NCBI GenBank assembly: GCA_963699275.1
Contig: OY969428.1
Coordinates: 629,110-693,109 of the forward strand
Source of the DNA: an uncultured bacterium
GTDB taxonomy: Bacteria > Babelota > Babeliae > Babelales > Babelaceae
DNA: 64,000 bases
Direction: 5' to 3'
Position 1 is the first letter of the stretch, and each line of letters opens with the position of its first letter. Under the pieces are notes generated by a model. The model did no database searches. It was not told the DNA's origin and saw nothing but the letters and a program-made list of their open reading frames with translations. This document shows, piece by piece, positions 25,611 through 64,000 of this stretch. The translations under genes were made by a program, and so were the position numbers.

Positions 25611-25800
25611 ATTCATATAGGGTGCTGATAATTTGGAAAGGTCTTAGAATTAAGCATAAAATACTGATTTCTTCATGTTGGGTTACAGGATTGGCGCATT
25701 CAGACTTACGTATATGGTACATTGCCTATTGAGTATTTTCGCTGATTGTTAATGGTATCGGCTAATGATTATGGTTTGTATAGGATGTTTTTTGATCTTG

Positions 25801-27446: not shown

Positions 27447-27642
27447 GACTTACCTTTTTTTAATGAAGTGCTTTCTCTTATTCTTCATCGGTAAATAGCC
27501 TAAAAAAGAAATTGTCACTTGGTGATAGCATCATTTATGTGGCACGGTTTTGCTTAATTAATCGGAAAAATACTTTCTCCACAGAAATAACAATGACTTA
27601 TACTATCCAAAGGCTCAATATTGCCTTTGATTTCTTTTGTTA

Positions 27643-28995
27643 TTAACGCGTGATCTTTCCAAAACTCTTAATCAAATTAACGATAGCGGCATGTCCACGT
27701 TGCCTCGCTATTTCAAGAGCAGTTTCTTTATCCGTATTTTGAGCATTCAGATCAATTGCAGGTACTTTAAGCAGGAGTTGAACAATTTCTGTATGTCCCA
27801 TATCAGCAGCACACATGAGAGGAGTCCATCGATCATTGTCCTGCTGATTAACGTCAATGCTCACTTTTTTAAGTAGGAGTCGAACCATTTCAGTGTGACC
27901 ATGTTTACACGCTATCATAAGAGCAGTAGCACCATCTTCATTTTGTGCATTAATATGGATATGAGCCTTACTAAGAAGGCATTCGGCACTGGCTGTATTT
28001 CCATACTCAGCAGCAATCATTAAAGCACTGATGTCTTGTTCTTCATGAGCATTAATATCGACATCAGGATGATCTATGAGTAATTGTACTATCTCTGAGA
28101 AATCATTTTCGCATGCGAGCATGAGTGCTGTTTGGCCGACATCTTGTTGAACGTTGACATCAATGTCCGGTTCATCAAGAAGCAATTTCACAATTTCTAT
28201 GTGACCTTTTTCGGCAGCGAGCATAAGAGCGGTGTAACCATAGGACTCAACCGCATTAATCTCGATGTCATCCCTGTCAAGAAGTAACTGTACAATTTCT
28301 TGATTGCCCTTTTCAACAGCAACTATGAGTGGCGGTTCTGAGCCTATATTTACATCAATACTGGGCATTGCAAGGAGCAATCGAACGATGTTTATATGTC
28401 CGCCATACAAAGCACAGCTCAGTGCAGATACGCCGGCTCTTTCATCATTGATGTTGATTTTTGGTTGCTTAAGCAGTATTTGAACGATTTCGTAATGACC
28501 ATTCTTGGCAGCTGATATAAGAGCAGTTGTAGTGTCGGGTAGATGGGGAGCATTAACATCAATATCTGGAATGCCAAAAAGCGAATTTACCATTTCTGTA
28601 CGTCCACATTCAGCAGCTATTAAAAGGGCCCTGCAGCAGAGTTGTTGTATGGTTGTATTACCCGATTGTTGCTCAAGTAATTTTTTGATGTCTTGCGCGA
28701 TAGAAATAAAAAATGGTCTCCAATCGGAACTATGACTTGTCTTTTCAAATATAATAGCTTCAAGTATTCGTAACATATACAAGCAAAGTTGCTGATCTTC
28801 CGCCGAAAGTGAGATGAGCTGTTGCGTGAGTGATGATTGACACCTATCGATTTCGGTACTTACCGGTGAAGAATTAACGGTACTTCCAGACTCATTGTGG
28901 TTAGTGTTGCCGAGGGCCTTACGTGTTTGCTCCATGGTTAAAAGGGATGTACTTGCAAACAAACTAGATGTAATAAAAAAAATTTTGAGTTTCAT
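27643..28995 (-). CDS. ankyrin-repeat protein with N-terminal secretion leader
   Basis: Leader MKLKIFFITSSLFASTSLLT then MEQT. About 9 ANK units. Confidence 0.9.
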   Translation of the reverse strand: MKLKIFFITSSLFASTSLLTMEQTRKALGNTNHNESGSTVNSSPVSTEIDRCQSSLTQQLISLSAEDQQLCLYMLRILEAIIFEKTSHSSDWRPFFISIAQDIKKLLEQQSGNTTIQQLCCRALLIAAECGRTEMVNSLFGIPDIDVNAPHLPDTTTALISAAKNGHYEIVQILLKQPKININDERAGVSALSCALYGGHINIVRLLLAMPSIDVNIGSEPPLIVAVEKGNQEIVQLLLDRDDIEINAVESYGYTALMLAAEKGHIEIVKLLLDEPDIDVNVQQDVGQTALMLACENDFSEIVQLLIDHPDVDINAHEEQDISALMIAAEYGNTASAECLLSKAHIHINAQNEDGATALMIACKHGHTEMVRLLLKKVSIDVNQQDNDRWTPLMCAADMGHTEIVQLLLKVPAIDLNAQNTDKETALEIARQRGHAAIVNLIKSFGKITR

Positions 28996-33226: not shown

Positions 33227-33727
33227 ATGAAAAAAATTCTCATTCTCGGATTATTGGCTTTTTCTTGGGGCATATACGCTGAAAACAAAGAAGAGCTTTA
33301 TAAAGAAGAACTTATGGGAGCCATAAAAGAGGGTAATGTCGAAAGCGTTACGAGAATTTTAAAGGCAGGTGACGTGCAGAAAAATCATCTGATAGAAGCT
33401 GCTCTCTTTGCTTTGGATAAAACAAGAAACGAATGTTTAATAAAAGTTCAAAATGAAGCCCAGAAGAGTGGTACTGCCCTGATGGCAGCTATGCTAGGAA
33501 TTTCAGTATATATTTTTGGAATTTGCTATGCGAATAAGATTAATTTTTATGAAAGCTTAGCGTTAGCTTTGATGCCGTCTGTGGGAACTCTATTCGCAGC
33601 GGCAATGGTTAATATATTAGAGTTAAATAAGATAACTACTCCTGACCCACATATTAATGCACTCGAGATTGCTCGACTTGTGGCACATTCAGCTCACAAA
33701 CCTGAAGAACCGTCTGAAAATAAATAA
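33227..33727 (+). CDS. P-family member 1: leader + short helical motif + 2 TM + charged tail, unknown function
   Basis: MKKILILGLLAFSWGIYA-ENKEELYKEELMGAIKEGNVESVTRILKAG..., two hydrophobic helices, then ..LEIARLVAHSAHKPEEPSENK. Confidence 0.7.
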   Translation: MKKILILGLLAFSWGIYAENKEELYKEELMGAIKEGNVESVTRILKAGDVQKNHLIEAALFALDKTRNECLIKVQNEAQKSGTALMAAMLGISVYIFGICYANKINFYESLALALMPSVGTLFAAAMVNILELNKITTPDPHINALEIARLVAHSAHKPEEPSENK

Positions 33728-33844
33728 AACATGAGTTCGATATGAGCAGATTTATTAGGAAGATTTTTCAAGATTCTTTTTTGATGAAATAGGGATCAAA
33801 AAATATCTTAGATATAACGCTAACCATATCATACGAGGAACATC

Positions 33845-34351
33845 ATGAAGAAACTTCTCATTCTTGGATTATTGGCTTTTTCTTCCAGCTTATACGCTGA
33901 AAACAACGAAGAGCTTTCTAAAGAAGAACTTATGAGAGCCATAAAAGAGGGTAATGTCGAAAGCGTTACGAGAATTTTAAAGGCGGGGATACAGAAAAGT
34001 GATCTCACCGATGCCGCACATTTTGCTCTTGATAAAATAAAAAACGAAATTGCACTAAGGGCTGCTAACGAAGAGTATAGGCTCGGATCGACCATGTTGT
34101 CGCTCATCTACATATATGGTTCTTATATGTTTTTCATTTGCCGGGCCAATCACATGCAACTGCACGAGAGCTTAGTGATGTCATTTATTCCTGCCGTTGC
34201 TGTCCCATGTCTAGGCCTTTTAGTAAAATGGTTTGGTCTAGATCAACCTACAATAGCTGATCCTCAAGTTAATACGATAGAAATTGCTCGGCTTGTGGCC
34301 CTTTCAGCGTATTCTGCGAAATCATCTGAAAAGCAAGCAGAGCAAAAATAG
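33845..34351 (+). CDS. P-family member 2
   Basis: MKKLLILGLLAFSSSLYA-ENNEELSKEELMRAIKEGNVESVTRILKAG.... The upstream 110 bp or so also duplicates the region upstream of member 1. Confidence 0.7.
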   Translation: MKKLLILGLLAFSSSLYAENNEELSKEELMRAIKEGNVESVTRILKAGIQKSDLTDAAHFALDKIKNEIALRAANEEYRLGSTMLSLIYIYGSYMFFICRANHMQLHESLVMSFIPAVAVPCLGLLVKWFGLDQPTIADPQVNTIEIARLVALSAYSAKSSEKQAEQK

Positions 34352-34474
34352 ATTACATCAAACTCTTTTTTTACCTGGCATGAAATGTTATTATAACCCA
34401 CTAAAAGATGCCGTTTGACGGAAGAGGTCGCAAAAAGTATGATACCATTAGCACTGATCTGTAAGAGGAACAAC

Positions 34475-35002
34475 GTGAAGAACTATATTATCATCGCTTT
34501 TCTAGTCCCCATTTTCACGGGTATCCTGTTTGCTGATCAAAAGCAAGAGCTTATGGATGCAATAAAAAAACGCGACATTAATCAACTTGCAAGGATTTTA
34601 TTGAAAGCAGATCTCATGCAAAAAAGTGATCTAGAGGACGCGCAGCAGTATGCTTTTGATAGACTAAAACATCCGTCAGTAGAGAGAACTCCTTTTGAAT
34701 GGTGCCAAGTTATAGGAGGCCCTACCGTGGGTTTCTGGAGTCTCTATTGGATTTTGACGAAAATGGGACGTTCAAATGGCCCGCTTGTTTGGTTACACCT
34801 GGGTGCTTTGGTTGTATCACCCTTTGTTATGCTTAATGGTTTTTTGGCGCCAATTATACGCTCGACTGCGTCAGAAGTAATTGCTGAATATGTATCAAAA
34901 GCAGCTGATATTGTACGAGAACATCCTGAAAAAGGGAAACAAAGGCTTTTGCTTGAAAAGCTTATATTTGAAGGGACCACTTTTATTAGAGGAACACCAT
35001 GA
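34475..35002 (+). CDS. P-family member 3
   Basis: GTG 34475 is preceded by aagaggaacaac, the same RBS context as members 4 and 5. VKNYIIIAFLVPIFTGILFA-DQKQELMDAIKKRDINQLARILLKAD... Confidence 0.6.
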   Translation: MKNYIIIAFLVPIFTGILFADQKQELMDAIKKRDINQLARILLKADLMQKSDLEDAQQYAFDRLKHPSVERTPFEWCQVIGGPTVGFWSLYWILTKMGRSNGPLVWLHLGALVVSPFVMLNGFLAPIIRSTASEVIAEYVSKAADIVREHPEKGKQRLLLEKLIFEGTTFIRGTP

Positions 35003-35526
35003 ACAACTATCTTCTTATTGTGTCTTTTGCTTGTGTTTTTACAAGTGCTCTGTTTGCGGATAAGAGAGATGAACTTATCAGTTCAATAAAACGGGGCGAT
35101 GTAGAAAAAGTAACAAGAATTTTAAGAAAGGCTGATCAAATTCAGAAAAATGACCTCGAGGAAGCAGCTGAATATGCTCTCGACCGAACAAAATCGCCAT
35201 CCTTATCTCGGACTGGATGGGAATGGACGAAGGCTATTGCTGGTGGTTTGTTCTTACCAACCAGTCTGCTTAGTTGGCACTGGTTCACCGGGGGACCATT
35301 TAGAGATGATTCTCCTAATTGGTTTGATGTGGGACATGCTATGTTTGCGGCTTTATGTGCGTATCTGCTTTACTCCGGGATAAGCACACCAATCAAGCGC
35401 TATGCTGGTGCGAAAGAAATTGCTCACCTGGTAGGAAATGCAGCTGAAAAAACTGGAGAAAAATCTGAAAATGCAGGCGAGCAATCAGCTCCGCGAAAAA
35501 GATTAATAATCGATGACGAAGATTGA
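34999..35526 (+). CDS. P-family member 4
   Basis: MNNYLLIVSFACVFTSALFA-DKRDELISSIKRGDVEKVTRILRKAD.... ATGA overlap with member 3. Confidence 0.7.
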   Translation: MNNYLLIVSFACVFTSALFADKRDELISSIKRGDVEKVTRILRKADQIQKNDLEEAAEYALDRTKSPSLSRTGWEWTKAIAGGLFLPTSLLSWHWFTGGPFRDDSPNWFDVGHAMFAALCAYLLYSGISTPIKRYAGAKEIAHLVGNAAEKTGEKSENAGEQSAPRKRLIIDDED

Positions 35527-35549
35527 GTCTTTATTAAAGAGGAACAACC

Positions 35550-36077
35550 ATGAATAAATATTTTCTTATTGGGTCTTTTGCTTTCACAAGTATTTTGTTT
35601 GCGGATAAGCGAGATGAACTTATCAGTGGAATAAAAAAAGGTGACGTAGAAAAAGTCACAAGAATATTAAGAAAGGCCGATCAAATCCAGAAAAATGACC
35701 TCGAGGAAGCAGCTGAATATGCTCTCGATCGAACAAAATCGCCATCCTTATCTCGGACTGGATGGGAATGGACGAAGACTATTGCTGGTGGGTTGTTCTT
35801 ATCAACCAATTTGATTAGTTGGTACGTGAGGTTCACCCACGAAGAATTCAGAAATGTCCCTTTTCCTAATTTGCATGATGGGGTGCATATTGTCTGGACA
35901 TCTTTATGGGCGTATCTGCTTTACTCCGGGATAAGTGAACCATACAAGCGCTATGCTGGTGCGAAAGAAATTGCACGCCTGGTAGGAAATGTAGCTAAAA
36001 AAACTGATCAAAAATCCCAAAATGCAGGTGAGCAACCAGCTCCACGAAAAAGATTAATAATCGATGACGAGGATTGA
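35550..36077 (+). CDS. P-family member 5 (recent duplicate of member 4)
   Basis: The first 80 aa or so and the last 45 aa or so are nearly identical to member 4 (...KNDLEEAAEYALDRTKSPSLSRTGWEWTK...; ...RKRLIIDDED). Confidence 0.7.
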   Translation: MNKYFLIGSFAFTSILFADKRDELISGIKKGDVEKVTRILRKADQIQKNDLEEAAEYALDRTKSPSLSRTGWEWTKTIAGGLFLSTNLISWYVRFTHEEFRNVPFPNLHDGVHIVWTSLWAYLLYSGISEPYKRYAGAKEIARLVGNVAKKTDQKSQNAGEQPAPRKRLIIDDED

Positions 36078-36229
36078 TTTTCATTTTATTTAAAAGAATG
36101 AAAAGCATAGCGAATACGCTTTTCAGCCCTTTTTTTATTTTAAATTTCGAAAAGATTAGTTGTATGATTTGATGAGAGAAATAACAAAAATAGTATAACG
36201 ATATATTTCTTCAAGGCATTTAAAGGAGC

Positions 36230-36682
36230 ATGATGATTAATCGTTTATTTATTGGTTTACTAGTTTTCATCTCTACAGGCTGCATTTTTGCTGATCAAGA
36301 GGATCGGCATGTGGGAGGTATAGACAAAAATGAAGACCTAATGACTGCCATAAAAAAAAGGGATGTTCGAGAAGTTAAAAGAATTTTGGCGGATGTCGAT
36401 GCTATGCAGACAAAGGATTTAGAAACTGCTTTTGAGTATGCTTCTTCCCGCATGAAACAAAGTTCACAACGTAAGTGGTGGGAATGGTTTTTGATTATAT
36501 ATTGTGGTGTACACTTATTTAAAAGAGATGGTGCTAACTACTGGCATATTTTGAATACTATTTTTGCGACGCTAGGAATGTGTTACGGGATAATCGGTCC
36601 TTTTAATCGGCAGGCAGCAGCAGAAAAAATTACTCGGCTTTTGCTGACAAAGTGCCGCGAGAAAAATGTGGAAATCCAGTAA
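36230..36682 (+). CDS. P-family member 6 (divergent)
   Basis: Leader ...FISTGCIFA-DQEDR.., DLMTAIKKRDVREVKRILADVDAMQTKDLETAFEYA, one or two TM segments, AEKITRLLL tail. Confidence 0.6.
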   Translation: MMINRLFIGLLVFISTGCIFADQEDRHVGGIDKNEDLMTAIKKRDVREVKRILADVDAMQTKDLETAFEYASSRMKQSSQRKWWEWFLIIYCGVHLFKRDGANYWHILNTIFATLGMCYGIIGPFNRQAAAEKITRLLLTKCREKNVEIQ

Positions 36683-36716
36683 AATAGTACTTCCCATAAA
36701 GAAAAATAATTCATCG

Positions 36717-37307
36717 ATGAGGAAAGATTTGAAAACCCTAACGATAATACCTATGTACTTGGTTATTTTTGGAAGTGTTAGTTTGCATGCTGACAAAGCA
36801 CAGAATGCACTCATGCGAGATGCTATTGAGACGTCTGATGTGTTAGCAGTCAGGGGACTTCTGAAAAAAGTAGAGCCTCTTAAAACCGCAGATAAGACTT
36901 CCTGGATCAAATTTGCAGATGATGTCATTGGGGAAAAAAGAGAGTTAACATCTCTTCTTAAGAGCCCACGTGATCTTATACGGTTTCTGTTTGGAGCAAC
37001 CGTTACCGTAAGCTGCACAGGACTTGCCGGCTTTTTTTTCAGACGCTACCTTAGGTGCCCGCTAAACTCGGGGGTGGACCCTGAAGAAAGAAGAACAAAT
37101 TTAGTCTATAGTGGTCTTTCTGCAGGTGTAGTAATACTGGGTGTTATCGCAATGGTCAAGGGTTGGTATTGTGATACTGCATATGCCAATGTAAAACTTG
37201 CTCGCCTAGCGAAAGAAGCTATCGAAAAAGCTCTTGTGGAAGGAGCTACTGGTACTCCTCAGTTAGCACAAAAAGATATTCGATCTTCAGACAAAAAAGA
37301 TCAGTGA
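36717..37307 (+). CDS. P-family member 7 (most divergent)
   Basis: MRKDLKTLTIIPMYLVIFGSVSLHA-DKAQNALMRDAIETSDVLAVRGLLKK.., two TM segments, VKLARLAKEAIEKAL tail. Confidence 0.55.
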   Translation: MRKDLKTLTIIPMYLVIFGSVSLHADKAQNALMRDAIETSDVLAVRGLLKKVEPLKTADKTSWIKFADDVIGEKRELTSLLKSPRDLIRFLFGATVTVSCTGLAGFFFRRYLRCPLNSGVDPEERRTNLVYSGLSAGVVILGVIAMVKGWYCDTAYANVKLARLAKEAIEKALVEGATGTPQLAQKDIRSSDKKDQ

Positions 37308-38302: not shown

Positions 38303-38367
38303 CTAATTTGTATTTACAAAGAATTCTTAATCAAATGACAAAAATACTCAGATACTATGAGGTTCTT

Positions 38368-39498
38368 ATGAAAAACATTTCAATCAAGATCATCTTGCTT
38401 GGTCTTGCATTCAGTACTTCAACAAAAGCAATGCAATCATCATCACAAGCTTCAGCTGACTCCATGACTGCGGAGCATACGACAACTACTGAAAACTTAG
38501 TTGGAGCATTTAATGCTCAAATAAACGCACTAACAGAACGATTTCATTCGGAAAAAAGATTCTTGGAAGCTGCGCAAGGGGACGAACGTGTGGCACGATT
38601 GGCCTTTATTCAAACTTTACAAACGGAGCTTAGTGATCTTGTCGATAGACGTGATGCACAACGAGCGGCTGGCGCAGGTCTGCGGCCTTCAAATGGACAG
38701 GCAGCGCAATCTTCTACCCAGCCTCAAGAAACGGTACAAAACGCTCTCTTAGCTTCTATGCAAAAATCACAGGTGCATGGAAGAATTTTAGAATGTATGG
38801 CTGAGTTAGCTAAGAAAATTGTTGCTCGCTTTTCGAAAGAAAGGGATGCAGAAATGGAAAAGGCTAGAATGCAAAATGAACAAGCTCTGCAAGTTCTTAA
38901 AAACAGTGAGTCGACGCCAGAGCAAAAAGAACTTGCTATTGAGCAGATAGAGTTTTTAGGGCGTTTGATGCCTGCGATAGCTGATTACTATGCAAAAGCT
39001 GCAGCCTTAGATAATATATTTACTGAAGTTCGCTGGCGAACGATTTCAGGTCTCCAGCGCGCAGCAGCTGAGGCTGGTCAGCCACCGAAACAATGTGTGG
39101 GTGGTTCTGAAACAGTTATGACCCATGAGGATTATTTAAGTTCACGTGCTAGATATGAAAAAATTCTTGATGATCTTCAGGCATCTGATCTACTTAAACA
39201 GGACACCATTTTATCCTGGTATTGGACTGAAAAGAGATGGGAAGGGCAGCAAAGAAAAAATGCTGCTAACGAAGTGAAAGCCAATAATGCTGCAACCGAG
39301 AAAACAGAAACACCGGTTCTTACTCAAGTAGCAAGCCAAAAAGCTGAATATATGAAGAAGCAGCATACTCTAGCTCTTTATATAGGCTGTTATTTCTTTA
39401 CTGAGGAAGTACGTGTGAAAGCGGCTTTGGATTTCTATCAGATTGAAAAAGAAATAAGACGACTTGTGCATCCAAGTACTCAGTCAGCTTCGCATTAA
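38368..39498 (+). CDS. Q-family member 2
   Basis: MKNISIKIILLGLAFSTSTKA-MQSSS... Shared blocks ILECMAELAKKIVARFSKERDAEMEKA, NSESTPEQKELAIEQIEFLGRLMPAIADYYAK and AALDFYQIEKE. Confidence 0.7.
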   Translation: MKNISIKIILLGLAFSTSTKAMQSSSQASADSMTAEHTTTTENLVGAFNAQINALTERFHSEKRFLEAAQGDERVARLAFIQTLQTELSDLVDRRDAQRAAGAGLRPSNGQAAQSSTQPQETVQNALLASMQKSQVHGRILECMAELAKKIVARFSKERDAEMEKARMQNEQALQVLKNSESTPEQKELAIEQIEFLGRLMPAIADYYAKAAALDNIFTEVRWRTISGLQRAAAEAGQPPKQCVGGSETVMTHEDYLSSRARYEKILDDLQASDLLKQDTILSWYWTEKRWEGQQRKNAANEVKANNAATEKTETPVLTQVASQKAEYMKKQHTLALYIGCYFFTEEVRVKAALDFYQIEKEIRRLVHPSTQSASH

Positions 39499-39624: not shown

Positions 39625-40473
39625 ATGAATATTTCGCAGAGAGCAGTAGTTATGTGCTTGCTTGTTACTTTATTTTCTTCGGTAATGGCGATGCAGCAAG
39701 AGGAACGTAATATTCAGTGCTATGAACAAATTCTAACCAGACTGCCTCCTTCTCAAAAAATGTTACACATTATGGCGCGTATAGCCGAAGCGATTTTTGC
39801 TCGCGCTGAGAAAGAAAGGCGAGCAGAGATGCTTAAAGTGCGAACAGAGTTGGACAGTGCTTTGAAGGTTCTTCGAAGCAGCCTATCATCACAACAGGAA
39901 AAAGAACAGGCAAGCGAGACGGTTGAATTTTTAAATAGACTTTCAGGTGAGATCTCGGTCCATTTTGCAAAAAAGACCGCAACTCAGGCTGTGCTTGAAG
40001 AGGCTTCGGGCAGGGCTCTTTTTGCCCTAAATGATGCCGTTGAAAGAGTAAGTGCTGATGAGCCTCATGACGACACCCCGCGGGAAGAATTTAAATTAGG
40101 ACATTATCAAGATGATCTGAATCGAGCGCTTAGTATTCTTAATGATGCAGAGAGTCCTCTTAAAGAAAAACGGAATGTTGCGAGGGTATGGTATTTCAAT
40201 GAGCTTCGTTGGGCAGAGCAACAAAGCAAGAAGAACACAGAAAAAGCACAGCAAGATGCGCCAGTAGCTCAGATAGACAATAAAAAAGTTCCGATCCTCT
40301 CGCCAGAACAAGCAGCGCAGAAAGCCGAATATGAAAAAACAAAGCGTATCGCAGTGAAGTATATACACTGTAATTATTTTAGTGAAGACGTGCGCTATCA
40401 AGCAGCGCTTGATTTCTATCTTGCAGACAAAGCCGAAAAAGATCTTACAGCTTTTCAGTCCACCACATCCTAA
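39625..40473 (+). CDS. Q-family member 3
   Basis: MNISQRAVVMCLLVTLFSSVMA-MQQEE... Shared blocks MARIAEAIFARAEKERRAEMLK, SSQQEKEQASETVEFLNRL and AALDFYLADKAEKDL. Confidence 0.7.
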   Translation: MNISQRAVVMCLLVTLFSSVMAMQQEERNIQCYEQILTRLPPSQKMLHIMARIAEAIFARAEKERRAEMLKVRTELDSALKVLRSSLSSQQEKEQASETVEFLNRLSGEISVHFAKKTATQAVLEEASGRALFALNDAVERVSADEPHDDTPREEFKLGHYQDDLNRALSILNDAESPLKEKRNVARVWYFNELRWAEQQSKKNTEKAQQDAPVAQIDNKKVPILSPEQAAQKAEYEKTKRIAVKYIHCNYFSEDVRYQAALDFYLADKAEKDLTAFQSTTS

Positions 40474-42169: not shown

Positions 42170-43840
42170 ATGATGGATAAAATAGTTACAAGAGGTCTAA
42201 AGGCGGTATTCTATCTATCCTTTTTACAGGGGGCTGTGCAGCTTTACTCTATGGAGGCGGCTCGAGGAGCACTTCCAGGAGCAGCTAACCCGAATGATCC
42301 TAATCGACCGCAGGTTGGGGAACACATTGCACAAGTTTATAACGTAGTCGAGCCAGCCATTCGGAACAACATAAATGCGATGGTTCTTGGTGAGCGTGAA
42401 GCATTGCAAAATGCACTTGATGCTGTGAATATCTCCTTAGCTAATGCTCGTGGAGTGGAACGAGAGAGATTATTAGCACGACGTGCTCAATTGGAAGATC
42501 AGCTTTTTGCCGTTGCAAGGCGACACGGAGGTCTTTTGGAGAATGCCCATCAAGCTGCTGTAAATATCGGAGCAGAATATGCTAGGTTCATTTTGGATAG
42601 AGGGAGAGAAGAATTTTCACGGCAAACGCAGTTTGGTAATACAGCTATTAACGCTCGTGAAAATCGTGCTGGAATGGTGCAAGCAAGCAGAGATCGTTTT
42701 GCCGATATTACTAATTGGGTTCGAGGTAATCCGAAATATATTTTGGGCATGACTGCAGGACTGACCATAGCAAGCTATGGTACCTATAAAGGGCTGCAGA
42801 TTGCGGCACATCGTTTTGAAAAGGAAACCCCACGTCTTGCGCAAGAAACATCGCTCCTTTCTACTAAAGAACAGATGCTTAATTGGTTAACGGGTAAACC
42901 ACAAAAAGAAGCAAATATAAAAGATGTGATTTTGCCTGAGGAAGATGAAAGGCGCGTGGAGGAGATCGTTGCAGCAATGCAATACTCCGTTCAAAATGGT
43001 GCCTATCTTAAAAATGGACTTTTCTGGGGACCTCCAGGAACTGGTAAAACTTTCTTGCTTGAAAGAATTGCTCGTAGTAGTGGCATGGATTATCTCTTAG
43101 TTGCAGGTCCCGATGCATTTGCCTATAGTGTGGAAGAAGGAATTATAGAGTGGAATAAAGTATTTGATCGAGCTGAAAACCATCCTAGACCAGTTATGAT
43201 TGTTATCGACGAATGCGAAGTTATCTTAGGTGACAGAAAAGACCCTGCCAATCAATCTGATAAGAAGCAGGCTTACCTCAATTTAATTTTAACGCGTTTT
43301 GGAACAGAAAATCGTAAACGCTGCGTGTTTGCTATCTGTAACCTTCCTGAGCGCCTTGATGAAGCATTTTTAAGCCGGTGCGATATTCAGATGTATGTAG
43401 GAGTCCCAGCGGTTCCTCAGCGTAAGCAGTTAATTAAGAAATATTTCACGAAATATCTTATTAAAGCAGAACACTTGGTGCATGAGGTTGTGGCCACAGT
43501 TACTGGATTCTTTAACAATCTTTTCTCATCGCCACCACCGCCTCCTACGCCACTTAAGTTCGAACAAGGCTTACTCAAAGATAATGAGATGAGTCCTCAG
43601 TTGATTGATGAAATCAGCGACAAACTTGAAGGACATGACTTTGTGGGACGTGATATTTCAAAGATGATGTTAATGATAGAAAGTACCGCGCACTCAACGA
43701 AGGACTCGATGGTTACTCGAGCTATTATTGATCGCGTGATAAAGACCAAGATTCACGAGAAACGTGTTGCTCGAGAAGGCTTTAAACGGGCACCATCGCA
43801 GGCAGATAAGAAGCCAACGCAGACATCTGCCGCAGCATAA
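42170..43840 (+). CDS. membrane-anchored AAA+ ATPase with ATAD3-like architecture
   Basis: N-terminal leader ..AVQLYS-MEAARG, then a helical region and a TM segment (YILGMTAGLTIASYGTY). Next come ETPRLAQETS, Walker A GLFWGPPGTGKTF, SGMDYLLVAGPD, Walker B VMIVIDECE, and the ..ICNLPERLDEAFLSRCD.. block. Confidence 0.75.
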   Translation: MMDKIVTRGLKAVFYLSFLQGAVQLYSMEAARGALPGAANPNDPNRPQVGEHIAQVYNVVEPAIRNNINAMVLGEREALQNALDAVNISLANARGVERERLLARRAQLEDQLFAVARRHGGLLENAHQAAVNIGAEYARFILDRGREEFSRQTQFGNTAINARENRAGMVQASRDRFADITNWVRGNPKYILGMTAGLTIASYGTYKGLQIAAHRFEKETPRLAQETSLLSTKEQMLNWLTGKPQKEANIKDVILPEEDERRVEEIVAAMQYSVQNGAYLKNGLFWGPPGTGKTFLLERIARSSGMDYLLVAGPDAFAYSVEEGIIEWNKVFDRAENHPRPVMIVIDECEVILGDRKDPANQSDKKQAYLNLILTRFGTENRKRCVFAICNLPERLDEAFLSRCDIQMYVGVPAVPQRKQLIKKYFTKYLIKAEHLVHEVVATVTGFFNNLFSSPPPPPTPLKFEQGLLKDNEMSPQLIDEISDKLEGHDFVGRDISKMMLMIESTAHSTKDSMVTRAIIDRVIKTKIHEKRVAREGFKRAPSQADKKPTQTSAAA

Positions 43841-53627: not shown

Positions 53628-55859
53628 ATGAACATTAAAAATTTCTTAATTTCTTTACTCTTTATTTCTTATCCTCTGTGTGCGATGTCCTCAAAACAAT
53701 TAGCCAAACAAAGGAATAAAATTACCAGACAGCATCTTGAAAATCTAAACGAAGAATTAAAAGAGTTCTTGCTGCTTTTGAAGAAGCCGGGAAATATTAA
53801 CGCTCGTGATGCGCATGGAAATACTCCACTTATAAGGGCTATCGAGCAAAGCAACAGTAAAATGACTCAACTGATCCTTAAACTACCAGCCACAGATATC
53901 AATGCCAAAAATCAAGAAGGCGTAACCGCTCTTATGTGCGCTGCCAAAATATCTCGATTCAAAGAAATTGTTCAGTTATTGCTCGCTAAAAAAGCTATTG
54001 ATGTTAATGCCCAAGATGTAAGAGGAGAAACAGCTCTGATGATCGCCACAAAATTTGGTAACAAAGAAGTTGTTGAGTTGCTCTTTAAAGCACCCAATAT
54101 AAATGTAAATGCTCAAGATAAAGATGGCAAAACAGCTCTTATGTTTGCTGCGCAATTTGATCAAAAAGAAATCGCTCAACTGCTTATTGCACAACCTGGA
54201 ATTGCTATCAATGCCCAAACGAAATCCGGTTGGACGGCTTTAACGTATGCTATTCGATCTGAGGGCGCTGAAATAACAGCACTCCTTCTAAATCAACCTT
54301 GCATCGATGTTTCGAAAGTGCTTTTTGATGCGGTCACGTTTGGTAGAAAAGAAGTTGTCGAACAGCTTCTTGCCAGACCTGATGTCGATGTCAATGCTGT
54401 CACAGAAGCGGGATTGAGTGCTTTGAGATTAGCATTTGATTATCAACAGAAAGATATAATTATCTTACTGCTTAATAAAAAAGGAATAGATATCAAACAA
54501 GCGCTTTTTCATGCCGTTCGTAAAAATAATAAAGAAGCGGTCCAACTGTTTCTTGCTCAATCTTGTATTGACATAAATATCGTGTATCAAAAACACACGG
54601 TTCTCGGTATTGCTGCCGAAAATGGTCACAAGGAGATAGTGGAGCTTCTCCTTCAACAACGTGGTGTCGATGTTAATCGAAAAGACGAATTTGGTCATAC
54701 CGCTCTCATATGCGCTTGCAAAGAAAATTTTACGGAAATTGTTGAACTGCTTCTTAAGCATCCAGGTATCGATATTTGTGCGCGCGATCAAGCGAGGTGG
54801 TCTGCTATGACATTCGCTATCCGCTGTGGTCACAAAAAAATAGTAGCCTTACTACTTGATAATCCTCACATTGATCTTACAGCAGCTCTTATGGAAATAA
54901 TTTCAGCGGGCAATGTAGAGATGATGCGATTGCTTCTTGCCCGAACAAATATCAGTATTAATCTTGCAGATGAATCTGGCGATACACCACTTGTGAAAGC
55001 TATCATTTGTGGGCGAAAAGAAATGGTTCAGTTCCTTCTCCAACAACCTGGCGGTAATATAAATGGCGAAAACAAGTACGGGTGGTCACTTCTTAGGTGT
55101 GCGCTCAAATTTGGTCACCCGGAAATAGCGCTACTTTTGGCTAATGACCCTAACATAGATAGAAATAAAGCTCTTCTAGACGCTGTTCGCGAAGGAAACA
55201 AAGAAATCTTTCAAGTGCTTTTGACTAAACCTGGCGTAGATATAAATGCACACAATGAACATGGTGAGACAGCCCTTATTGTTGCTGCTCAAAAAGGTCA
55301 AACAGAACTGGCAGGGCTACTTCTTGCAATGCCTCATGTCGCTCTTAATGCTGGTGACGATGATGGCCAAACGGCTCTCATGATTGCTGCTTATAATGGT
55401 CACGAGGAAATTGTTGGGCTGCTTCTTGCTCAACTTACTATAGCTGTTAATGTTCAAGACGAGACAGGCAGGACAGCTCTGATGGCTGCTGCTCATGAGG
55501 GTCACAGAGAAATTGTTCAATTACTTCTTGCTCACCCTGATATAGCCATTAATGTTCAAGATAATGAACAGGTAACGGCTCTCATGTACGCTACGGAAAA
55601 CGGTCATACTGAAGCAGCTCAGTGCTTTCTCAGTGCTCCTGACATAGCGGTCAATGTTCAAGATAGTGATGGTCGGACTGCTCTTATGCTTGCTGTTGAA
55701 AACGGTCATCTTGAAACTGTTCAATTGCTACTTCATCAATATGATTTAGAGATGAATATCAAGGATCACGAAGATTTGACAGCTGAGCAGATAGCTGAAC
55801 AAAGCGGGTATGCCACTATTGCACAGTTAATTCGAAGTGCTTATAGAGTCACTCGCTAA
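53628..55859 (+). CDS. large ankyrin-repeat protein (about 20 units) with N-terminal secretion leader
   Basis: Leader MNIKNFLISLLFISYPLCA then MSSK, followed by continuous ANK units. Confidence 0.9.
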   Translation: MNIKNFLISLLFISYPLCAMSSKQLAKQRNKITRQHLENLNEELKEFLLLLKKPGNINARDAHGNTPLIRAIEQSNSKMTQLILKLPATDINAKNQEGVTALMCAAKISRFKEIVQLLLAKKAIDVNAQDVRGETALMIATKFGNKEVVELLFKAPNINVNAQDKDGKTALMFAAQFDQKEIAQLLIAQPGIAINAQTKSGWTALTYAIRSEGAEITALLLNQPCIDVSKVLFDAVTFGRKEVVEQLLARPDVDVNAVTEAGLSALRLAFDYQQKDIIILLLNKKGIDIKQALFHAVRKNNKEAVQLFLAQSCIDINIVYQKHTVLGIAAENGHKEIVELLLQQRGVDVNRKDEFGHTALICACKENFTEIVELLLKHPGIDICARDQARWSAMTFAIRCGHKKIVALLLDNPHIDLTAALMEIISAGNVEMMRLLLARTNISINLADESGDTPLVKAIICGRKEMVQFLLQQPGGNINGENKYGWSLLRCALKFGHPEIALLLANDPNIDRNKALLDAVREGNKEIFQVLLTKPGVDINAHNEHGETALIVAAQKGQTELAGLLLAMPHVALNAGDDDGQTALMIAAYNGHEEIVGLLLAQLTIAVNVQDETGRTALMAAAHEGHREIVQLLLAHPDIAINVQDNEQVTALMYATENGHTEAAQCFLSAPDIAVNVQDSDGRTALMLAVENGHLETVQLLLHQYDLEMNIKDHEDLTAEQIAEQSGYATIAQLIRSAYRVTR

Positions 55860-60389: not shown

Positions 60390-60417
60390 CAAAAAAAGTG
60401 AGCTGCTTTAGCTCACA
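60390..60417 (-). terminator. rho-independent terminator, about 260 nt downstream of the ANK-RING gene
   Basis: The minus strand reads gtgagct-aaagc-agctcac followed by ttttttt. Confidence 0.5.
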
Positions 60418-60680: not shown

Positions 60681-62507
60681 TTATTGTTGGACATTCTGGT
60701 TACCAGGCACAGTAGGGTAAGTCGTATTTCCGACTGGTCCTGGCTGCAGTCGTCGTGCAGGGGCAGCTGGTACCGGAGAATGAATATAAGCTGGAGCGCG
60801 TGGTGGAGCTATAGTGACTGCTGCAGGTTGAGTAGGCATAGGAGCTGGTACGTGCCTAGCAATCCGTAATGGAGCATAGGTAGGAAGGGGTGGTTGAGCT
60901 CCAAATGGGGCAGCAGAAGCTAGAGGATTAGTAGGTCTGGCGATAGGAGCTAAAACGGGATTTGGTATTTGGGCATGTTCTACAGGGCGGAGTCGTAGTC
61001 TAACTCTATGAGCAAGAAATTCCGCGATGACCGGGTGTGGTTGAGCATTTTGGTTTCTTTCTCTATGAGCAAGAAATTCCGCGATGACTGGGTGTGGTTG
61101 AGCATTTTGGTTTCTTTCATGCCCAGGTAATGCGGGATGAGCATTTGCTGCACCGGCCGCATTTTGTGCCGGTAAACCATTTAATGAGCGTTCGGCCGCC
61201 ATCCGAGCAGTTTCTGGAAGTTCAGGTACTTCCGGACGCTCAAATTCAGGATCAATGCGTTGTGGAACAGGTACTGAGCGCACTGGCCTGTTGGTCGGAC
61301 TGATTTCAACATTATTCAGTGAGCGTAATTTTTGAATATTGGCTAATTCTTGGGTGGTAAGTGTCCGATTGCATCCAATAAGACCTATGTTGTTGTTTTC
61401 ACGGTATTCAATTGGGTCAAAAATAACTATATTACGTCTACAAACTGGGCATGTTTTCCGTTCATTTCCCTGTCGTTCGACATGAGGCAATAAGCACTCA
61501 AGGTGGAAGTTGTGCTTACATGTGCATCGAATGCCAATTTCTTTGTCTTCATCATCATGGCCTATGTGTGTCATACAAACGGGGCAGTCTTTAAAATTTT
61601 CCGGAAGGTGTACTGAAGCCTCTAAAAGGCGTGCGATTTGTGCAAAGCCGAACTGGACGGCATAGTCGCGTGCTGTTCTTCGAGCATTATCTTGCACATT
61701 GCGATCAAATCCCAGAACAAGAAGTATTTCTACAAGTTCAGGGATTCCTGTGATCACTGCCTTATAAAGGAAGCTTCTTCCATTAACATCTCTATAATTG
61801 TGTATATTCGGAATATGCTGGGCAAGACATTTTAGAATTCTCTTTGTTTTTTCAAGTGCCCGCGGCCAGTTGTCAGGAGTGCGGAAACGAGGTTCAGTAA
61901 GATTTAATAGTGCCAATTCAAAATCAGTAACTGTAGGTTGTTCATTTTGTGCGAATTTTTCAACAAGATCTGGGTAAAGTCTTTGTATCGCTTCATGCAA
62001 CGTCCTTACACTTCTTTTTTTGGCAAGCTTATGCTCCAGCATTCTATCAGCGAAGATCTCTTGTATCGCAAAGATTTCTGCATCAGTAAATCGTTCGGTA
62101 TTTCTTAAAATAGCGACAACTTCTTGGTGTTCATTATCAGCTAGGAAGTTCTGCTGTTCTGCAGTGAGATTTAATTTGTTCTGATCGGCACCGAGCTGTA
62201 AAAGTAGTTGTGTGGTACGTGATTTTTTTGCTAGTACTGCAAAAAACAAAGGAGTTCTTTCACTTACCCTCGTGCCATCATTATTACTAGTAATTTTTAA
62301 GGTATCTACATCGACACCTCTCATTAACACTAAGAAACTGATCTTTTCAAGTGCACGTTCCGTAAGGATCGGGTTTCTAGAGTCTTCTAAGAGACATAGT
62401 TTATGAATGTCATTGCTGCCTAGAGCTATTTCATCATAATTTGGTTGCATTGCGATTGCTGATGCGTTGATAAACAGGATAAGAATGGCAAAAAATTTGA
62501 GATTCAT
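60681..62507 (-). CDS. exported ankyrin-repeat + RING-H2 zinc-finger protein with proline-rich C-terminus (candidate E3 ubiquitin ligase mimic)
   Basis: Leader MNLKFFAILILFINASAIA then MQPN. ANK units are TPLFFAVLAKKSRTTQLLLQLGADQN and GRSFLYKAVITGIPELVEILLVLGFDRN... The RING-H2 pattern is C-PV-C-x16-C-K-H-NF-H-LE-C-x14-C-PV-C (about 61440-61590). Confidence 0.85.
   Translation of the reverse strand: MNLKFFAILILFINASAIAMQPNYDEIALGSNDIHKLCLLEDSRNPILTERALEKISFLVLMRGVDVDTLKITSNNDGTRVSERTPLFFAVLAKKSRTTQLLLQLGADQNKLNLTAEQQNFLADNEHQEVVAILRNTERFTDAEIFAIQEIFADRMLEHKLAKKRSVRTLHEAIQRLYPDLVEKFAQNEQPTVTDFELALLNLTEPRFRTPDNWPRALEKTKRILKCLAQHIPNIHNYRDVNGRSFLYKAVITGIPELVEILLVLGFDRNVQDNARRTARDYAVQFGFAQIARLLEASVHLPENFKDCPVCMTHIGHDDEDKEIGIRCTCKHNFHLECLLPHVERQGNERKTCPVCRRNIVIFDPIEYRENNNIGLIGCNRTLTTQELANIQKLRSLNNVEISPTNRPVRSVPVPQRIDPEFERPEVPELPETARMAAERSLNGLPAQNAAGAANAHPALPGHERNQNAQPHPVIAEFLAHRERNQNAQPHPVIAEFLAHRVRLRLRPVEHAQIPNPVLAPIARPTNPLASAAPFGAQPPLPTYAPLRIARHVPAPMPTQPAAVTIAPPRAPAYIHSPVPAAPARRLQPGPVGNTTYPTVPGNQNVQQ
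61004..61117 (-). repeat. 2 x 57-bp direct repeat inside the Pro-rich tail (19-aa unit ERNQNAQPHPVIAEFLAHR)
   Basis: 61004-61060 and 61061-61117 differ at a single position (c/t). Confidence 0.9.
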
Positions 62508-62550: not shown

Positions 62551-62579
62551 AATTTAGCAAAAAAAATTGATTTTGTCAA
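62551..62579 (-). promoter_or_regulatory. sigma70-like promoter for the ANK-RING gene
   Basis: The minus strand reads TTGACA (62579-62574), a 17-nt spacer, then TAAATT (62556-62551). Confidence 0.35.
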
Positions 62580-62742: not shown

Positions 62743-64000
62743 TTAATGAACCAAATGCCAAAATCCATTCTTTCGTATGAATTTCTTGCGTGCTGGCTGC
62801 ATTTTTGAAGAAGGCTTCGTCGGTTTTATTCGTGAAACAAGCTTCTTAATTGGCTTCTTGCTCACTTGTCTTTTTAGTTTGGCGACGGGCTTAGTCGGCC
62901 GCTTTCCGATTTTCTTAACCGGCCTTTTAAGTGCCGGCTTTCCTTTAACAATTTTAACAATTTTCCTAGCTTTAGGTTTTGCCGCACGTATAGGCGATAA
63001 AGCAGGCTTTATCGGTGCAATCGGCGCTATTGGGCTAACCATGGGCGCTGGCACCGGGAGTACCGGCCAAATTGGAAATATCGGGCTAGTTGGTCCACCA
63101 GCTGGGCTTGGTGATATTGGAGGAACGGGCCCACCAATTGGACCTGGTAATGGTGGTATTGGGCCACCGATTGGACCTGGCGCCGCTGGAGCACTTGGTG
63201 CAGCAGGGCCGGCCGGAGCTGGAATTCGTGGTCTTGGTGCTGGTGCTGGAGCAACAGCTGGAGCAGCAGGAACCGCAGGGACAGGTACAGGTAACCTTAC
63301 AGCCACAGGAATTGGTCCTAGAGCTGGAACAGGAGCTAAAGCCGGATTTGGTACTGGAGCATGAACAGGAACTCGAGCAGCAGGTACTACAGGATTAGCG
63401 GGTCTTGCAGCTGGAGCCGGAACAGGAGCTAAAACTGGATTTGGTGCTTGAGGCTGAACAGGGGGTTGAGCAGCCGGCATTCCAGGATTAGCGGGTCTTG
63501 CAGCTGGAACTGGGACAGGAGCTAAAGCCGGATTTGGTGCTTGAGGCTGAACAGGAACTTGAGCAGCAGGCACTACGGGATTACCAGGTCTTGCAGCAGC
63601 TGGAGCTGGAACAGGAGCTAAAGGCGGATTTGGTGCTTGAGGCTGAATAGGAGCTCGAGCAGCAGGTACTACCACAGGATCAGCGGGTCTTGCAACTGGG
63701 GCTGGAACAGGAACTAAAACCGGATTTGGTGCTTGAGCATTAGCGGGGGCCGGAACTGGTTCTACGGGTCCGGGTCCGAGTCGCCTAACTCGAAATGCAT
63801 CTGCTGGGGCAATTGGGTTGCCTGCTGGAACAATAGCATCTGGTTGTGCTATTGGCGGCCGTTGCCGGTGCACAGGTATGACCGGTTGTTGTGCCCACCA
63901 CAATCTTCTTTGCTCTCTTACTCTTCTAATCTCGCCTGCCATTTGAGGAAATATATTTAATATGCGTTCGGTATTTTCGGCCCAGACCTCATAAGGGAGC
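62743..64000 (-). CDS. Pro/Ala-rich repeat protein with lysine-rich C-terminal tail (5' end outside window)
   Basis: The frame stays open upstream of the M at 63942 to the window edge. It holds units of about 31-32 aa, PNP(V/A)LAPVPAPAARPANPVVPAA(R/Q)VPVQPQA. The tail is KPKARKIVKIVKGKPALKRPVKKIGKRPTKPVAKLKRQVSKKPIKKLV... Confidence 0.7.
   Translation of the reverse strand, partial: LPYEVWAENTERILNIFPQMAGEIRRVREQRRLWWAQQPVIPVHRQRPPIAQPDAIVPAGNPIAPADAFRVRRLGPGPVEPVPAPANAQAPNPVLVPVPAPVARPADPVVVPAARAPIQPQAPNPPLAPVPAPAAARPGNPVVPAAQVPVQPQAPNPALAPVPVPAARPANPGMPAAQPPVQPQAPNPVLAPVPAPAARPANPVVPAARVPVHAPVPNPALAPVPALGPIPVAVRLPVPVPAVPAAPAVAPAPAPRPRIPAPAGPAAPSAPAAPGPIGGPIPPLPGPIGGPVPPISPSPAGGPTSPIFPIWPVLPVPAPMVSPIAPIAPIKPALSPIRAAKPKARKIVKIVKGKPALKRPVKKIGKRPTKPVAKLKRQVSKKPIKKLVSRIKPTKPSSKMQPARKKFIRKNGFWHLVH
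63300..63760 (-). repeat. five tandem 93-96-bp coding repeats
   Basis: The anchor ggatttggt(g/a)ct recurs at 63344, 63437, 63530, 63626 and 63722. Confidence 0.85.

Follow-up and report, generated by a model that had tools for sequence, protein, structure and literature searches.

A probable secreted RING-H2 ubiquitin ligase effector with ankyrin repeats and a conserved post-RING extension in an uncultured Dependentiae-related bacterium

Near the right edge of the window, by which we mean the whole stretch of 64,000 nucleotides analysed, a complete open reading frame on the minus strand encodes a 608-residue protein, with the extent and RING segment reported for it in the first-pass annotation both recovered in the translation. 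The protein combines an N-terminal leader, ankyrin (ANK) repeats, a RING-H2 finger, a conserved extension and a low-complexity tail, and its gene stands in tandem with a paralog, P0002, whose coding sequence leaves the window. A promoter-like match lies 44 bp 5' of the start codon. The features of the locus are as follows:

60681..62507, minus strand: complete coding sequence with ATG start, 608 aa, comprising leader, ANK, RING-H2, conserved extension and Pro/Ala-rich tail
62451..62507, minus strand: Sec-type signal peptide, aa 1-19 (MNLKFFAILILFINASAIA, followed by MQ), on a heuristic reading
62169..62258, minus strand: ankyrin repeat, aa 84-113 (Pfam Ank, 24.0 bits vs. cutoff 21.1)
61623..61841, minus strand: ankyrin repeat block, aa 223-295 (Pfam Ank_2, E=8e-11, 42.8 bits)
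61437..61589, minus strand: RING-H2 finger, aa 307-357, with outer ligands C308 and C356 (profile, PDB alignments, AF2)
61215..61436, minus strand: conserved post-RING extension, aa 358-431 (family alignment)
60684..61214, minus strand: Pro/Ala-rich low-complexity tail, aa 432-608 (composition)
61005..61118, minus strand: 57-bp tandem duplication in 2 copies, coding for an exact 19-aa repeat
62551..62579, minus strand: sigma-70-like promoter match, TTGACA-17-TAAATT with TG (consensus match only)
60398..60416, minus strand: terminator-like hairpin and T-run, 3' of the stop codon and before topA (consensus match only)
62743..64000, minus strand: 3' part of the tandem paralog P0002, exiting the right edge of the window
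62710-62734: terminator-like hairpin at the P0002 side (consensus match only)

The surroundings of the gene are those of a bacterial chromosome, with TopA, MetRS, BamA and ABC transporters as neighbors, together with a PBP, UppS, ATP synthase and GluRS. TopA is 65-78% identical to its counterparts in MAGs labelled no further than 'uncultured bacterium', 55-59% to those in MAGs labelled TM6/Babeliales and at most 46% to those in MAGs labelled as other phyla; the encoding genome is bacterial and belongs to the obligate intracellular Dependentiae/Babeliales lineage. The window holds five other ANK genes, four of them with leaders, as well as genes for a type IV pilin and a prepilin peptidase.

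With respect to the N-terminal half of the protein, manual inspection and a hydropathy scan agree with the secretion leader proposed earlier, in that a Sec-type leader can be read heuristically at aa 1-19, with K4, a 15-residue hydrophobic core (FFAILILFINASAIA) and A17-I-A19 preceding M20; the same scan gave no further membrane-like segment in the protein. The paralogs show this pattern of a leader followed by Met as well, and so do other ORFs with leaders in the window, including the neighboring ANK genes. The ankyrin repeats expected upstream of the RING were recovered by both Ank (aa 84-113) and Ank_2 (aa 223-295), amounting to multiple repeats N-terminal to the finger, and Ank_5 scored 25.1 bits on the same protein; degenerate repeats, with no profile match of their own, likely flank aa 84-113, beginning at about aa 30. 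A search of NCBIfam returned only weak, generic ANK-driven matches (MzaA, AnkH, AnkY), all far under their cut-offs. The Pro-rich tail with a perfect 19-aa duplication was likewise found where it had been placed, C-terminal to the RING: aa 405-608 comprise 19% Pro and 17% Ala, and the exact tandem repeat ERNQNAQPHPVIAEFLAHR occupies aa 464-501, its two DNA copies (61005-61061 and 61062-61118) differing by one synonymous mismatch. This tail is about 350 aa shorter than that of P0002 and does not have the basic C-terminus of the latter; the shorter tail and the very recent duplication are compatible with relaxed constraint on this part of the protein.

The candidate zinc ligands of the RING are C308, C311, C330 (or C328), H332, H335, C338, C353 and C356, in the order C3H2C3, and their spacings of 2/18/1/2/2/14/2 conform to the accepted RING consensus, C-x2-C-x9-39-C-x1-3-H-x2-3-H-x2-C-x4-48-C-x2-C. 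The first-pass annotation had assigned the RING-H2 type correctly but had counted 16 residues between the second and third ligands, a reading that ends on C328; in alignments with RNF24 and RLIM the third ligand is C330 and the spacing x18, so that the canonical reading becomes C-x2-C-x18-C-x-H-x2-H-x2-C-x14-C-x2-C. The local order is C328-T-C330-K-H332, and both the x16 and x18 readings fall within the consensus ranges. As for profile searches, zf-RING_2 (PF13639) matched the 608-residue protein at 27.5 bits against a gathering threshold of 27.3 (E=3.7e-6, profile positions 2-44 of 44), which is significant and over the curated threshold but by just 0.2 bits, whereas its paralog and relatives scored clearly, at 29.8-44.3 bits. 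Searched as a single sequence against the PDB, the protein matched RNF4, RNF24, RLIM, EL5, listerin, RNF13 and RNF126 (E 2.8e-5 to 4e-3), while the family profile matched 24 solved RING-H2 E3 ligases with E down to 1.2e-6. Among 81 loci totalling 1.3 Mb, mostly from other bacteria, the RING regular expression matched solely in Dependentiae-type loci, and the RING match is, on this sequence evidence, in excess of chance.

Structure prediction gave the same picture. In the metal-free AF2 model, pLDDT was 82-89 across most of the RING but fell to about 67 within the variable C2-C3 loop, and for the extension it was 73-87. The top Foldseek matches of this model were exclusively RING E3s, e.g., APC11 (TM 0.80, rmsd 3.3 over 61 columns), plus giant-virus RING proteins; the predicted structure thus resembles RING E3 domains only. 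A prediction for aa 1-445 from a 2-sequence alignment reached a pLDDT of 34, so no model of the arrangement of ANK and RING is offered. Three of four E2-contact positions are kept in the protein, namely V310 (hydrophobic, C1+2), P354 (after C7) and R357 (linchpin), which we take to be E2-contact and linchpin positions from the established structures of RINGs with E2~Ub. In the RNF4 alignment, V310 falls on Ile, P354 on Pro and R357 on the linchpin Arg. The fourth position, the RING-helix Trp, is His342 in the 608-residue protein and Tyr in P0002, and P0028, P0048 and P0085 (second module) have Trp there; in the PDB alignment RNF4 is likewise without the helix Trp.

Three other classes of finger were considered and rejected. 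A U-box assignment fails on score (zf-RING_UBOX, 11.8 bits vs. a cutoff of 25.2, E=0.25), and all eight zinc ligands are present. The prokaryotic RING family Prok-RING_4 reached 12.9 bits against a cutoff of 27, with topA, metG and ANK genes as neighbors of the gene, and the plant XB3/XBAT type (RING_XB3-XBAT31) 10.9 bits against a cutoff of 50.

The family numbers at least four paralogs, this gene among them, two of which form the tandem pair. P0002, at 961 aa, also comprises leader, ANK, RING and extension and is 76% identical to the 608-residue protein over aa 1-445; between the two proteins, identity is highest in the extension (88%) and the RING (78%), as compared with 47% for the leader. 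The extension, of about 75 aa, follows the pattern IVIFDPIE...LIGCNR...ELANIQKLRSLNNV...RPVRSVPVPQRI.PEFERPEVPELP (aa 358-431) and is common to P0002, P0028, P0048 and P0085 along with the RING; profile searches for its homologs found none among PDB sequences (E<=10) and none in Pfam. All eight zinc ligands are intact in 6 of 7 aligned family modules, the exception being the divergent first module of P0085. Other paralogs are located elsewhere on the same contig, one of them adjoining the gene for ribosomal protein S20, and proteins with leader, ANK and RING-H2 occur in another Babeliales MAG as well. A RING also occurs with a leader and another domain in the closest relative; some relatives carry C-terminal hydrophobic anchors, and double RINGs are found among them.

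An exhaustive HMMER search returned mostly ankyrin-rich proteins, with true relatives of the RING plus extension confined to P0028, P0048 and P0085. Word-indexed searches recovered only the protein itself and its paralog with the whole protein as query, only itself with aa 1-404, and one 226-aa RING protein (E=4e-5) with the family profile; these searches were inconsistent and missed known relatives, and hence support little past the statement that there are no close homologs. The RING plus extension profile found zero relatives in JGI metagenome contigs and IMG/VR, and a metagenome scan seeded with the ANK-RING pair of locus L004 gave 79 ANK loci, none of them combining ANK with RING beyond the same contig. 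Since identity to any RING outside the family is about 35% or less, no donor can be named. In synteny comparison, the gene pair beside topA is absent in the closest relatives (L022 and L006); synteny is not conserved, and the pair is therefore a lineage-specific insertion or expansion.

Compared with eukaryotic ligases such as RNF24, RLIM, RNF13, EL5 (ATL), RNF126 and AMFR, the protein shares the C3H2C3 order, permitted spacings and predicted fold, and it has in common with eukaryotic RING-H2 E3s the E2-contact Pro, the hydrophobic C1+2 residue and the linchpin Arg. It differs from them in being encoded by a bacterium with a Sec leader, in having His in place of the helix Trp, in the long (18 residues) and acidic C2-C3 loop, and in its conserved extension, which has no eukaryotic or PDB counterpart. 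In Legionella AnkB, the Orientia Anks and poxvirus ANK/PRANC proteins, the ankyrin repeats pick the host target and a small C-terminal module links to the ubiquitination machinery, a layout similar to the one here. ANK plus F-box effectors recruit SKP1-CUL1 via the F-box and rely on the host RING protein RBX1; the 608-residue protein, in contrast, brings its own RING and would be expected to bind E2~Ub directly. Plant XB3/XBAT proteins and MIB1/2 have the same order of N-terminal ankyrin and C-terminal RING, but XB3-type RINGs are C3HC4 and not C3H2C3, and we saw no sign of orthology. LubX, GobX, RavN, NleG and AvrPtoB, which mimic E3s by binding E2s once delivered into the host cell, have no zinc ligands or are recognized by structure only, whereas the zinc RING-H2 described here is detectable from sequence.

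Among bacteria, a RING finger protein was reported in a one-line genomic mention for Babela massiliensis, an isolate of the Dependentiae (Pagnier et al. 2015; PMC4378268), with which our protein shares phylum, lifestyle and the idea of a potential E3 amid many secreted ANK proteins; compared by description only, the ANK fusion, post-RING extension and paralog expansion are not described there (PMC4378268). The present protein is accordingly a fresh example and not a new principle, because RING proteins had already been noted in Dependentiae. SneRING (SNE_A12920) of Simkania negevensis, a chlamydial RING E3 shown to be active in 2025, comes from an obligate intracellular amoeba-associated bacterium and works with UbcH5-type E2s, a precedent indicating that bacterial RINGs of this kind can be real ligases (PMC12591485). 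Its ligands are atypical (the third one for Zn1 is His, and Zn2 has NxxC), Ser occupies the E2-contact position, and its layout is an N-terminal RING with a C-terminal alpha/beta domain and no ANK reported (PMC12591485); the 608-residue protein is set apart from it, by description, in that its eight ligands are all canonical and its contact residue is hydrophobic. [quoted passage not shown] The earlier remark that true RING-H2 fingers are rare in bacteria is thus overstated for intracellular bacteria (PMC3417536, PMC4378268, PMC12591485).

Taken together, we favor, with reasonable though not full confidence, the reading that the 608-residue protein is an effector, secreted by a protist-dwelling Dependentiae (TM6/Babeliales) bacterium, that acts as a ubiquitin E3 ligase of the eukaryotic RING-H2 type. 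Because an exported protein joins ankyrin repeats to a complete RING-H2, it is a credible candidate for hijack of host ubiquitin, and the RING profile, the RING-only fold matches, the conserved ligands and the intracellular lineage all uphold its earlier nomination as such. It is probably a functional secreted E3 effector, and from sequence we infer both ligase activity and host delivery. In the mechanism we propose, the N-terminal leader would route the unfolded protein through Sec, from where it may move onward to the host cytosol or a host-facing surface, for example by type II/type IV-pilus-like machinery or vesicles. The RING-H2, as predicted from its conserved positions and fold, would hold two zinc ions in a cross-brace and dock a UBE2D-like host E2~ubiquitin by means of the central helix, V310 and P354, and R357 would serve as the linchpin priming the discharge of ubiquitin. 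Judging by ANK-F-box and ANK-RING ligases, the ankyrin repeats may grip a host target, and the ubiquitin would then pass either to this target or to the effector. We surmise that the extension could form a small beta-hairpin/helix subdomain packed on the RING that perhaps tunes E2 or ubiquitin binding or oligomerization, and that the Pro/Ala-rich tail may be disordered and evolve fast, as a spacer or for docking. The family as a whole would be a lineage-specific and duplicating one, in which the RING plus extension stays constant and the targeting modules around it are swapped, ankyrin repeats in our protein for a hydrophobic C-terminal anchor in its relatives.

Many RINGs are inactive on their own, and it is conceivable, if unlikely, that the fold is a real RING but an unproductive ligase, one that would act on E2s as a sink or decoy, bind to the ubiquitin system in some other way or mediate protein interactions as a plain zinc finger, with the ankyrin repeats as the effector part. 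The replacement by His of the helix Trp, an E2 contact in many RING-H2s, and the borderline Pfam score would fit such a role, but active RINGs such as RNF4 are without this Trp as well, the protein keeps the linchpin Arg, the Pro that follows C7 and a hydrophobic residue at C1+2, and the RING plus extension is the best-conserved region between paralogs. Export raises a separate question. A Sec leader by itself carries a protein to the periplasm only, and the leader is the only export signal visible; type III, IV and VI secretion components were not seen within the window, and we know of no dedicated host-translocation system for Dependentiae. The protein could then stay outside the host cytosol (periplasm, bacterial surface or vacuole lumen) as a zinc finger with a non-ubiquitin role, which we hold to be rather unlikely, given that ANK with a canonical RING-H2 has no known partners beyond the eukaryotic cytosol, that the same leader format is the norm among presumed effectors of the phylum (signal peptides are found on 78% of the ANK proteins of Chromulinavorax), and that the hydrophobic C-terminal anchors of relatives suggest host-facing display.

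The gene might also be a decaying duplicate of a lineage-specific family heading to a pseudogene, as its place in a tandem pair, its shortened tail, the very recent 57-bp duplication and the lowest RING score of the family could suggest; an intact 608-codon ORF, zinc ligands and extension retained at 78-88% identity to the paralog, and its own promoter-like and terminator-like signals make this distinctly improbable. Prokaryotic RING families do exist (Pfam Prok-RING models), but participation in a bacterial-internal ubiquitin-like conjugation or defence system is very improbable in view of the sub-threshold Prok-RING_4 score, the absence of E1, E2, JAB and Ubl genes near the RING gene, the best matches being eukaryotic RING-H2 E3s, and a leader and ANK repeats that point to export. 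That eukaryotic or giant-virus DNA was misassembled into a bacterial bin is barely credible: the eukaryotic character of the domains and the giant-virus proteins with RINGs among the structural matches would fit it, but the gene is intron-free with a bacterial leader, its region resembles the rest of the window in GC content, bacterial housekeeping genes flank it on a 1.73-Mb contig, the scan of IMG/VR gave no relatives, and the paralogs elsewhere on this contig include the one beside ribosomal protein S20.

To our knowledge, there is no experimental knowledge of how Dependentiae, as widespread obligate protist parasites, control their hosts; almost all characterized bacterial E3 effectors that we know of are of the U-box, HECT-like, NEL, SidE or F-box types, and SneRING, with its non-canonical ligands, is the one biochemically studied bacterial zinc RING known to us. 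The secreted RING-H2 ligase favored here pairs a fully canonical RING-H2 with a predicted substrate-binding ANK domain, and aa 20-445 are small enough for expression and E2 panels. It could offer a first point of entry to the subversion of host ubiquitin by Dependentiae, as well as a clean case of a eukaryote-type RING on a Sec-exported scaffold of bacterial origin. New insight is most to be expected from the post-RING extension. We raise, as a tentative idea of which we are doubtful, that the RING-H2 and this extension of about 75 residues ('IYDPIE...LIGxNR...LRxLxNV...RPxRxVPVP') comprise an undescribed bacterial effector platform, i.e., an E3 core made of a canonical zinc RING, with an accessory element built into it, which has been duplicated and re-targeted by module swap within a small Dependentiae-related clade. 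The accessory element may be, for example, a subdomain that binds the E2 backside or ubiquitin or that mediates dimerization, in loose analogy with the AO7 U5BR, and the modules swapped may be the ankyrin repeats of the tandem pair vs. the double RINGs and conserved C-terminal membrane anchor of its relatives.

The ORF of the studied gene was found intact exactly where the first-pass annotation had placed it, and Pfam searches together with repeat analysis recovered both the ankyrin (ANK) units described upstream of the RING finger and the perfect 19-residue duplication described in the Pro-rich tail. The features of the gene and its tandem paralog are:

60681..62507, (-) strand: studied ORF, 608 aa
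aa 84-113 of the studied protein: Ank (Pfam), N-terminal to the RING
aa 223-295 of the studied protein: Ank_2 (Pfam, E=8e-11), N-terminal to the RING
61005-61118, (-) strand: 57-bp tandem duplication encoding the exact 19-aa repeat, aa 464-501
62743 to beyond 64000, (-) strand: tandem paralog P0002, 961 aa, directly upstream of the studied gene

The two copies of the 57-bp duplication differ by one synonymous mismatch, and the duplication is therefore recent; the tail (17% Ala and 19% Pro over the last 204 residues) is a disordered, fast-evolving region. Read manually, the N-terminus has K4, a 15-residue hydrophobic core and A-I-A ahead of M20, and looks like a candidate cleavable Sec signal peptide, with no second membrane-like segment found in the protein beyond this leader. 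The gene does not stand out in GC content, and the promoter-like and terminator-like sites flanking it (consensus matches only) suggest that it forms its own transcription unit.

The candidate zinc ligands are C308, C311, C328/C330, H332, H335, C338, C353 and C356. Sixteen residues past C311 one reaches C328, followed by T-C330-K-H332; because alignments to RNF24 and RLIM place C330 in the third-ligand position, we read the finger as the canonical C-x2-C-x18-C-x-H-x2-H-x2-C-x14-C-x2-C. Thus the RING-H2 segment noted at first pass is present, but the x16 given between its second and third ligands was a miscount. The suggested search with zf-RING_2 (Pfam) yielded a significant match over the whole profile (27.5 bits, E=3.7e-6), exceeding the curated threshold by only 0.2 bits; P0002 and other family members scored 29.8-44.3 bits. 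As a lone query, the RING segment matched the solved E3s RNF4, RNF24, RLIM, EL5, listerin, RNF13 and RNF126 (E 2.8e-5 to 4e-3), and a 7-sequence family profile matched 24 solved RING-H2 ligases (best E 1.2e-6). For aa 296-444, an AF2 model based on the family alignment had pLDDT of 82-89 across most of the RING and ~67 in the variable loop between the second and third ligands. Foldseek of this model against PDB returned exclusively RING E3 domains (TRIM21, APC11, RNF4, RBX1, TRAF6, RNF125 and HRD1), with APC11 at TM 0.80 and rmsd 3.3 over 61 columns, while giant-virus RING proteins were matched in a viral library. Other identities for the RING were rejected, namely Prok-RING_4 (12.9 bits vs. 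a cutoff of 27), zf-RING_UBOX (11.8 vs. 25.2) and RING_XB3-XBAT31 (10.9 vs. 50).

Established structural work on RING-E2~Ub complexes has defined the roles of an E2-contacting Ile, a conserved Pro and a linchpin Arg; in alignment with RNF4 these correspond to V310, P354 and R357, respectively. The Trp typical of the RING-H2 helix is His in the studied protein and Tyr in P0002, and is kept in the relatives P0028 and P0048 and in the second module of P0085; RNF4 likewise lacks it.

P0002 shares the leader-ANK-RING layout, with 76% identity across aa 1-445 (leader 47%, ANK parts 74-77%, RING 78%), rising to 88% in the post-RING segment, aa 358-431. Its tail carries ~4.4 copies of a 93-bp repeat (63321..63737, QAPNPxLAPVPAPAARPxNPVVPAA...) and ends with a ~90-aa, very Lys/Arg-rich segment that the studied gene does not have. 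Exhaustive HMMER searching, the output of which was dominated by ankyrin-rich proteins, identified three genuine relatives of the region that spans the RING and the segment behind it, P0048, P0085 and P0028 (42-46% identity). Since P0048 and P0085 lie on the studied gene's own 1.73-Mb contig, this genome carries at least four paralogs; P0028 is on another bacterial contig, with a further RING gene downstream whose product has both a leader and a hydrophobic domain at its C-terminus. All three relatives have leaders, lack ankyrin repeats, carry one (P0048) or two (P0028 and P0085) RING modules, and combine extended Pro/Ala-rich stretches with a hydrophobic domain conserved at the C-terminus. 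This domain of ~90 aa (G..LLG.LMS.ELK ... Y.PFA...IL...PQRT.D.K...S...GVAAG.LLP), which contains two or three hydrophobic stretches and is also listed for L082:11680-12486, is missing from both ANK-bearing paralogs; it may serve to anchor the proteins so that they are displayed on either the bacterial or the host membrane.

As the relatives share it amid differing modules, the constant core is the RING-H2 plus its ~75-residue extension (IYDPIE...LIGxNR...LRxLxNV...RPxRxVPVP...RPxxPELP), modeled as a beta-hairpin plus helix (pLDDT 73-87). The extension had no sequence match in Pfam or PDB, searches of JGI metagenome contigs and IMG/VR turned up no relatives of RING plus extension, and the closest genomes lack synteny for the tandem pair.

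The neighbors of the gene are plainly bacterial (TopA, MetRS, BamA/Omp85 and ABC transporters), and the window also holds a class A PBP, UppS, a PASTA protein, F-ATPase a and c subunits, GluRS and TnpB. TopA shares 78%, 71% and 65% identity with MAGs whose label is just 'uncultured bacterium' or 'bacterium', 55-59% with TM6/Babeliales-labelled MAGs and at most 46% with MAGs assigned by label to any other phylum. Dependentiae are obligate intracellular parasites of protists. Abundant ankyrin genes with leaders are a hallmark of this group, and five more ankyrin genes occur in the window, four with leaders; Chromulinavorax destructans has 98 ANK proteins, 78% with signal peptides (PMC6561590). 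A Babeliales MAG locus, L004, has two tandem leader+ANK+RING-H2 genes beside topA (zf-RING_2 42.5 and 31.5 bits), and that of the closest relative, L022, pairs a leader and an unknown domain with a RING-HC. The RING pattern was confined to Dependentiae-type loci among 81 that were fetched, a 1.3-Mb set drawn mostly from other phyla. The first-pass remark that true RING-H2 fingers are rare in bacteria is too strong for this ecological group. Directly upstream of the L004 pair, L004:12908..13825 (+) encodes a leader-bearing protein without a Pfam match, whose C-terminal Cys/His pattern, CCHFFHED...CPAC, may be a degenerate RING.

Sequence analysis shows in what order the domains lie, that the ligands are conserved and that the gene belongs to a bacterial intracellular parasite, and the profile and PDB matches, together with this context, support the first-pass proposal of a candidate effector of the host ubiquitin system. 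We surmise that the leader would direct Sec export and that the protein would reach the host side via an undefined route, where the RING, folding in a zinc-dependent manner, would dock a host UBE2D-like E2~Ub via the helix together with V310 and P354, R357 serving as the linchpin; ubiquitin would then be passed to an ANK-held target or to the effector itself, and the extension may steady the RING or contribute E2 or ubiquitin contacts. Competing explanations are that the RING is inactive or a decoy, that the protein is exported without reaching the host, or that the gene is a decaying duplicate. A bacterial-internal ubiquitin-like system and contamination by eukaryotic or giant-virus DNA both conflict with what the profiles and the genomic context show.

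Eukaryote-like E3 effectors of intracellular bacteria are already known, and the studied protein would join them as a candidate. SneRING of Simkania, reported in 2025 as an active RING E3 with UbcH5b and UBE2T, differs in its atypical ligands and architecture (PMC12591485). In a search of the open-access literature we met neither ANK-RING-H2 fusions nor the post-RING extension described for Dependentiae; the one element that is possibly new is this conserved extension, with the family that swaps modules around it. The finding is conceptually expected and the source organism uncultured, and in vitro tests of the protein would be straightforward.

Many unrelated exported proteins have a Sec-type leader ending in a small residue and followed at once by Met, usually then Glu/Gln (...SLFT|MEKK, ...STKA|MQSS, ...SAIA|MQPN, ...TLKA|MDQK). 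This format could represent a motif for cleavage or sorting that is specific to the lineage, or a relic of the original start codon after leader capture, and occurs in:

22766..23767, 24005..25477, 27643..28995 and 60681..62507, (-) strand
38308..39498, 39625..40473, 42170..43840 and 53628..55859, (+) strand
other sequences: P0002, P0048, P0085, L004:13840 and L022:6866

An array of four ankyrin-repeat genes at 22766..28995 (-) has near-identical leaders in three; the fourth, 25801..27168 (-), begins as called within an ANK repeat, so that it may lack its real start or leader, or have it further upstream. Seven small ORFs in a row (33227..37307, (+), 150-213 aa), the first six with leader-like N-termini by eye and several sharing N-terminal regions 'ELxxAIKxGxVExVTRIL', suggest that a family of small secreted proteins has expanded locally; a Pfam scan of the first ORF only gave no match. 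The AAA ATPase at 42170..43840 (+; 556 aa), with a leader-like N-terminus, resembles Babela's secreted, Ulp1-fused AAA+ family, although the peptidase domain was not detected here. A type IV pilin/pseudopilin with an N_methyl motif (20811..21269, +) adjoins a Peptidase_A24 prepilin peptidase (21250..21789, -), possible parts of the only export machinery other than Sec that the window shows. The TnpB/Cas12f1-like ORF at 1168..2253 (+; TNB domain, 84 bits) indicates an IS200/IS605-type element in this reduced genome. The F-type ATP synthase c subunit ORF (17020..17979, -, 319 aa) has three ATP-synt_C stretches by Pfam and four hairpin-like repeats by eye, with E / Q / E / D at the ion-binding position; such a multi-hairpin fused c subunit beside subunit a is unusual for a bacterium.
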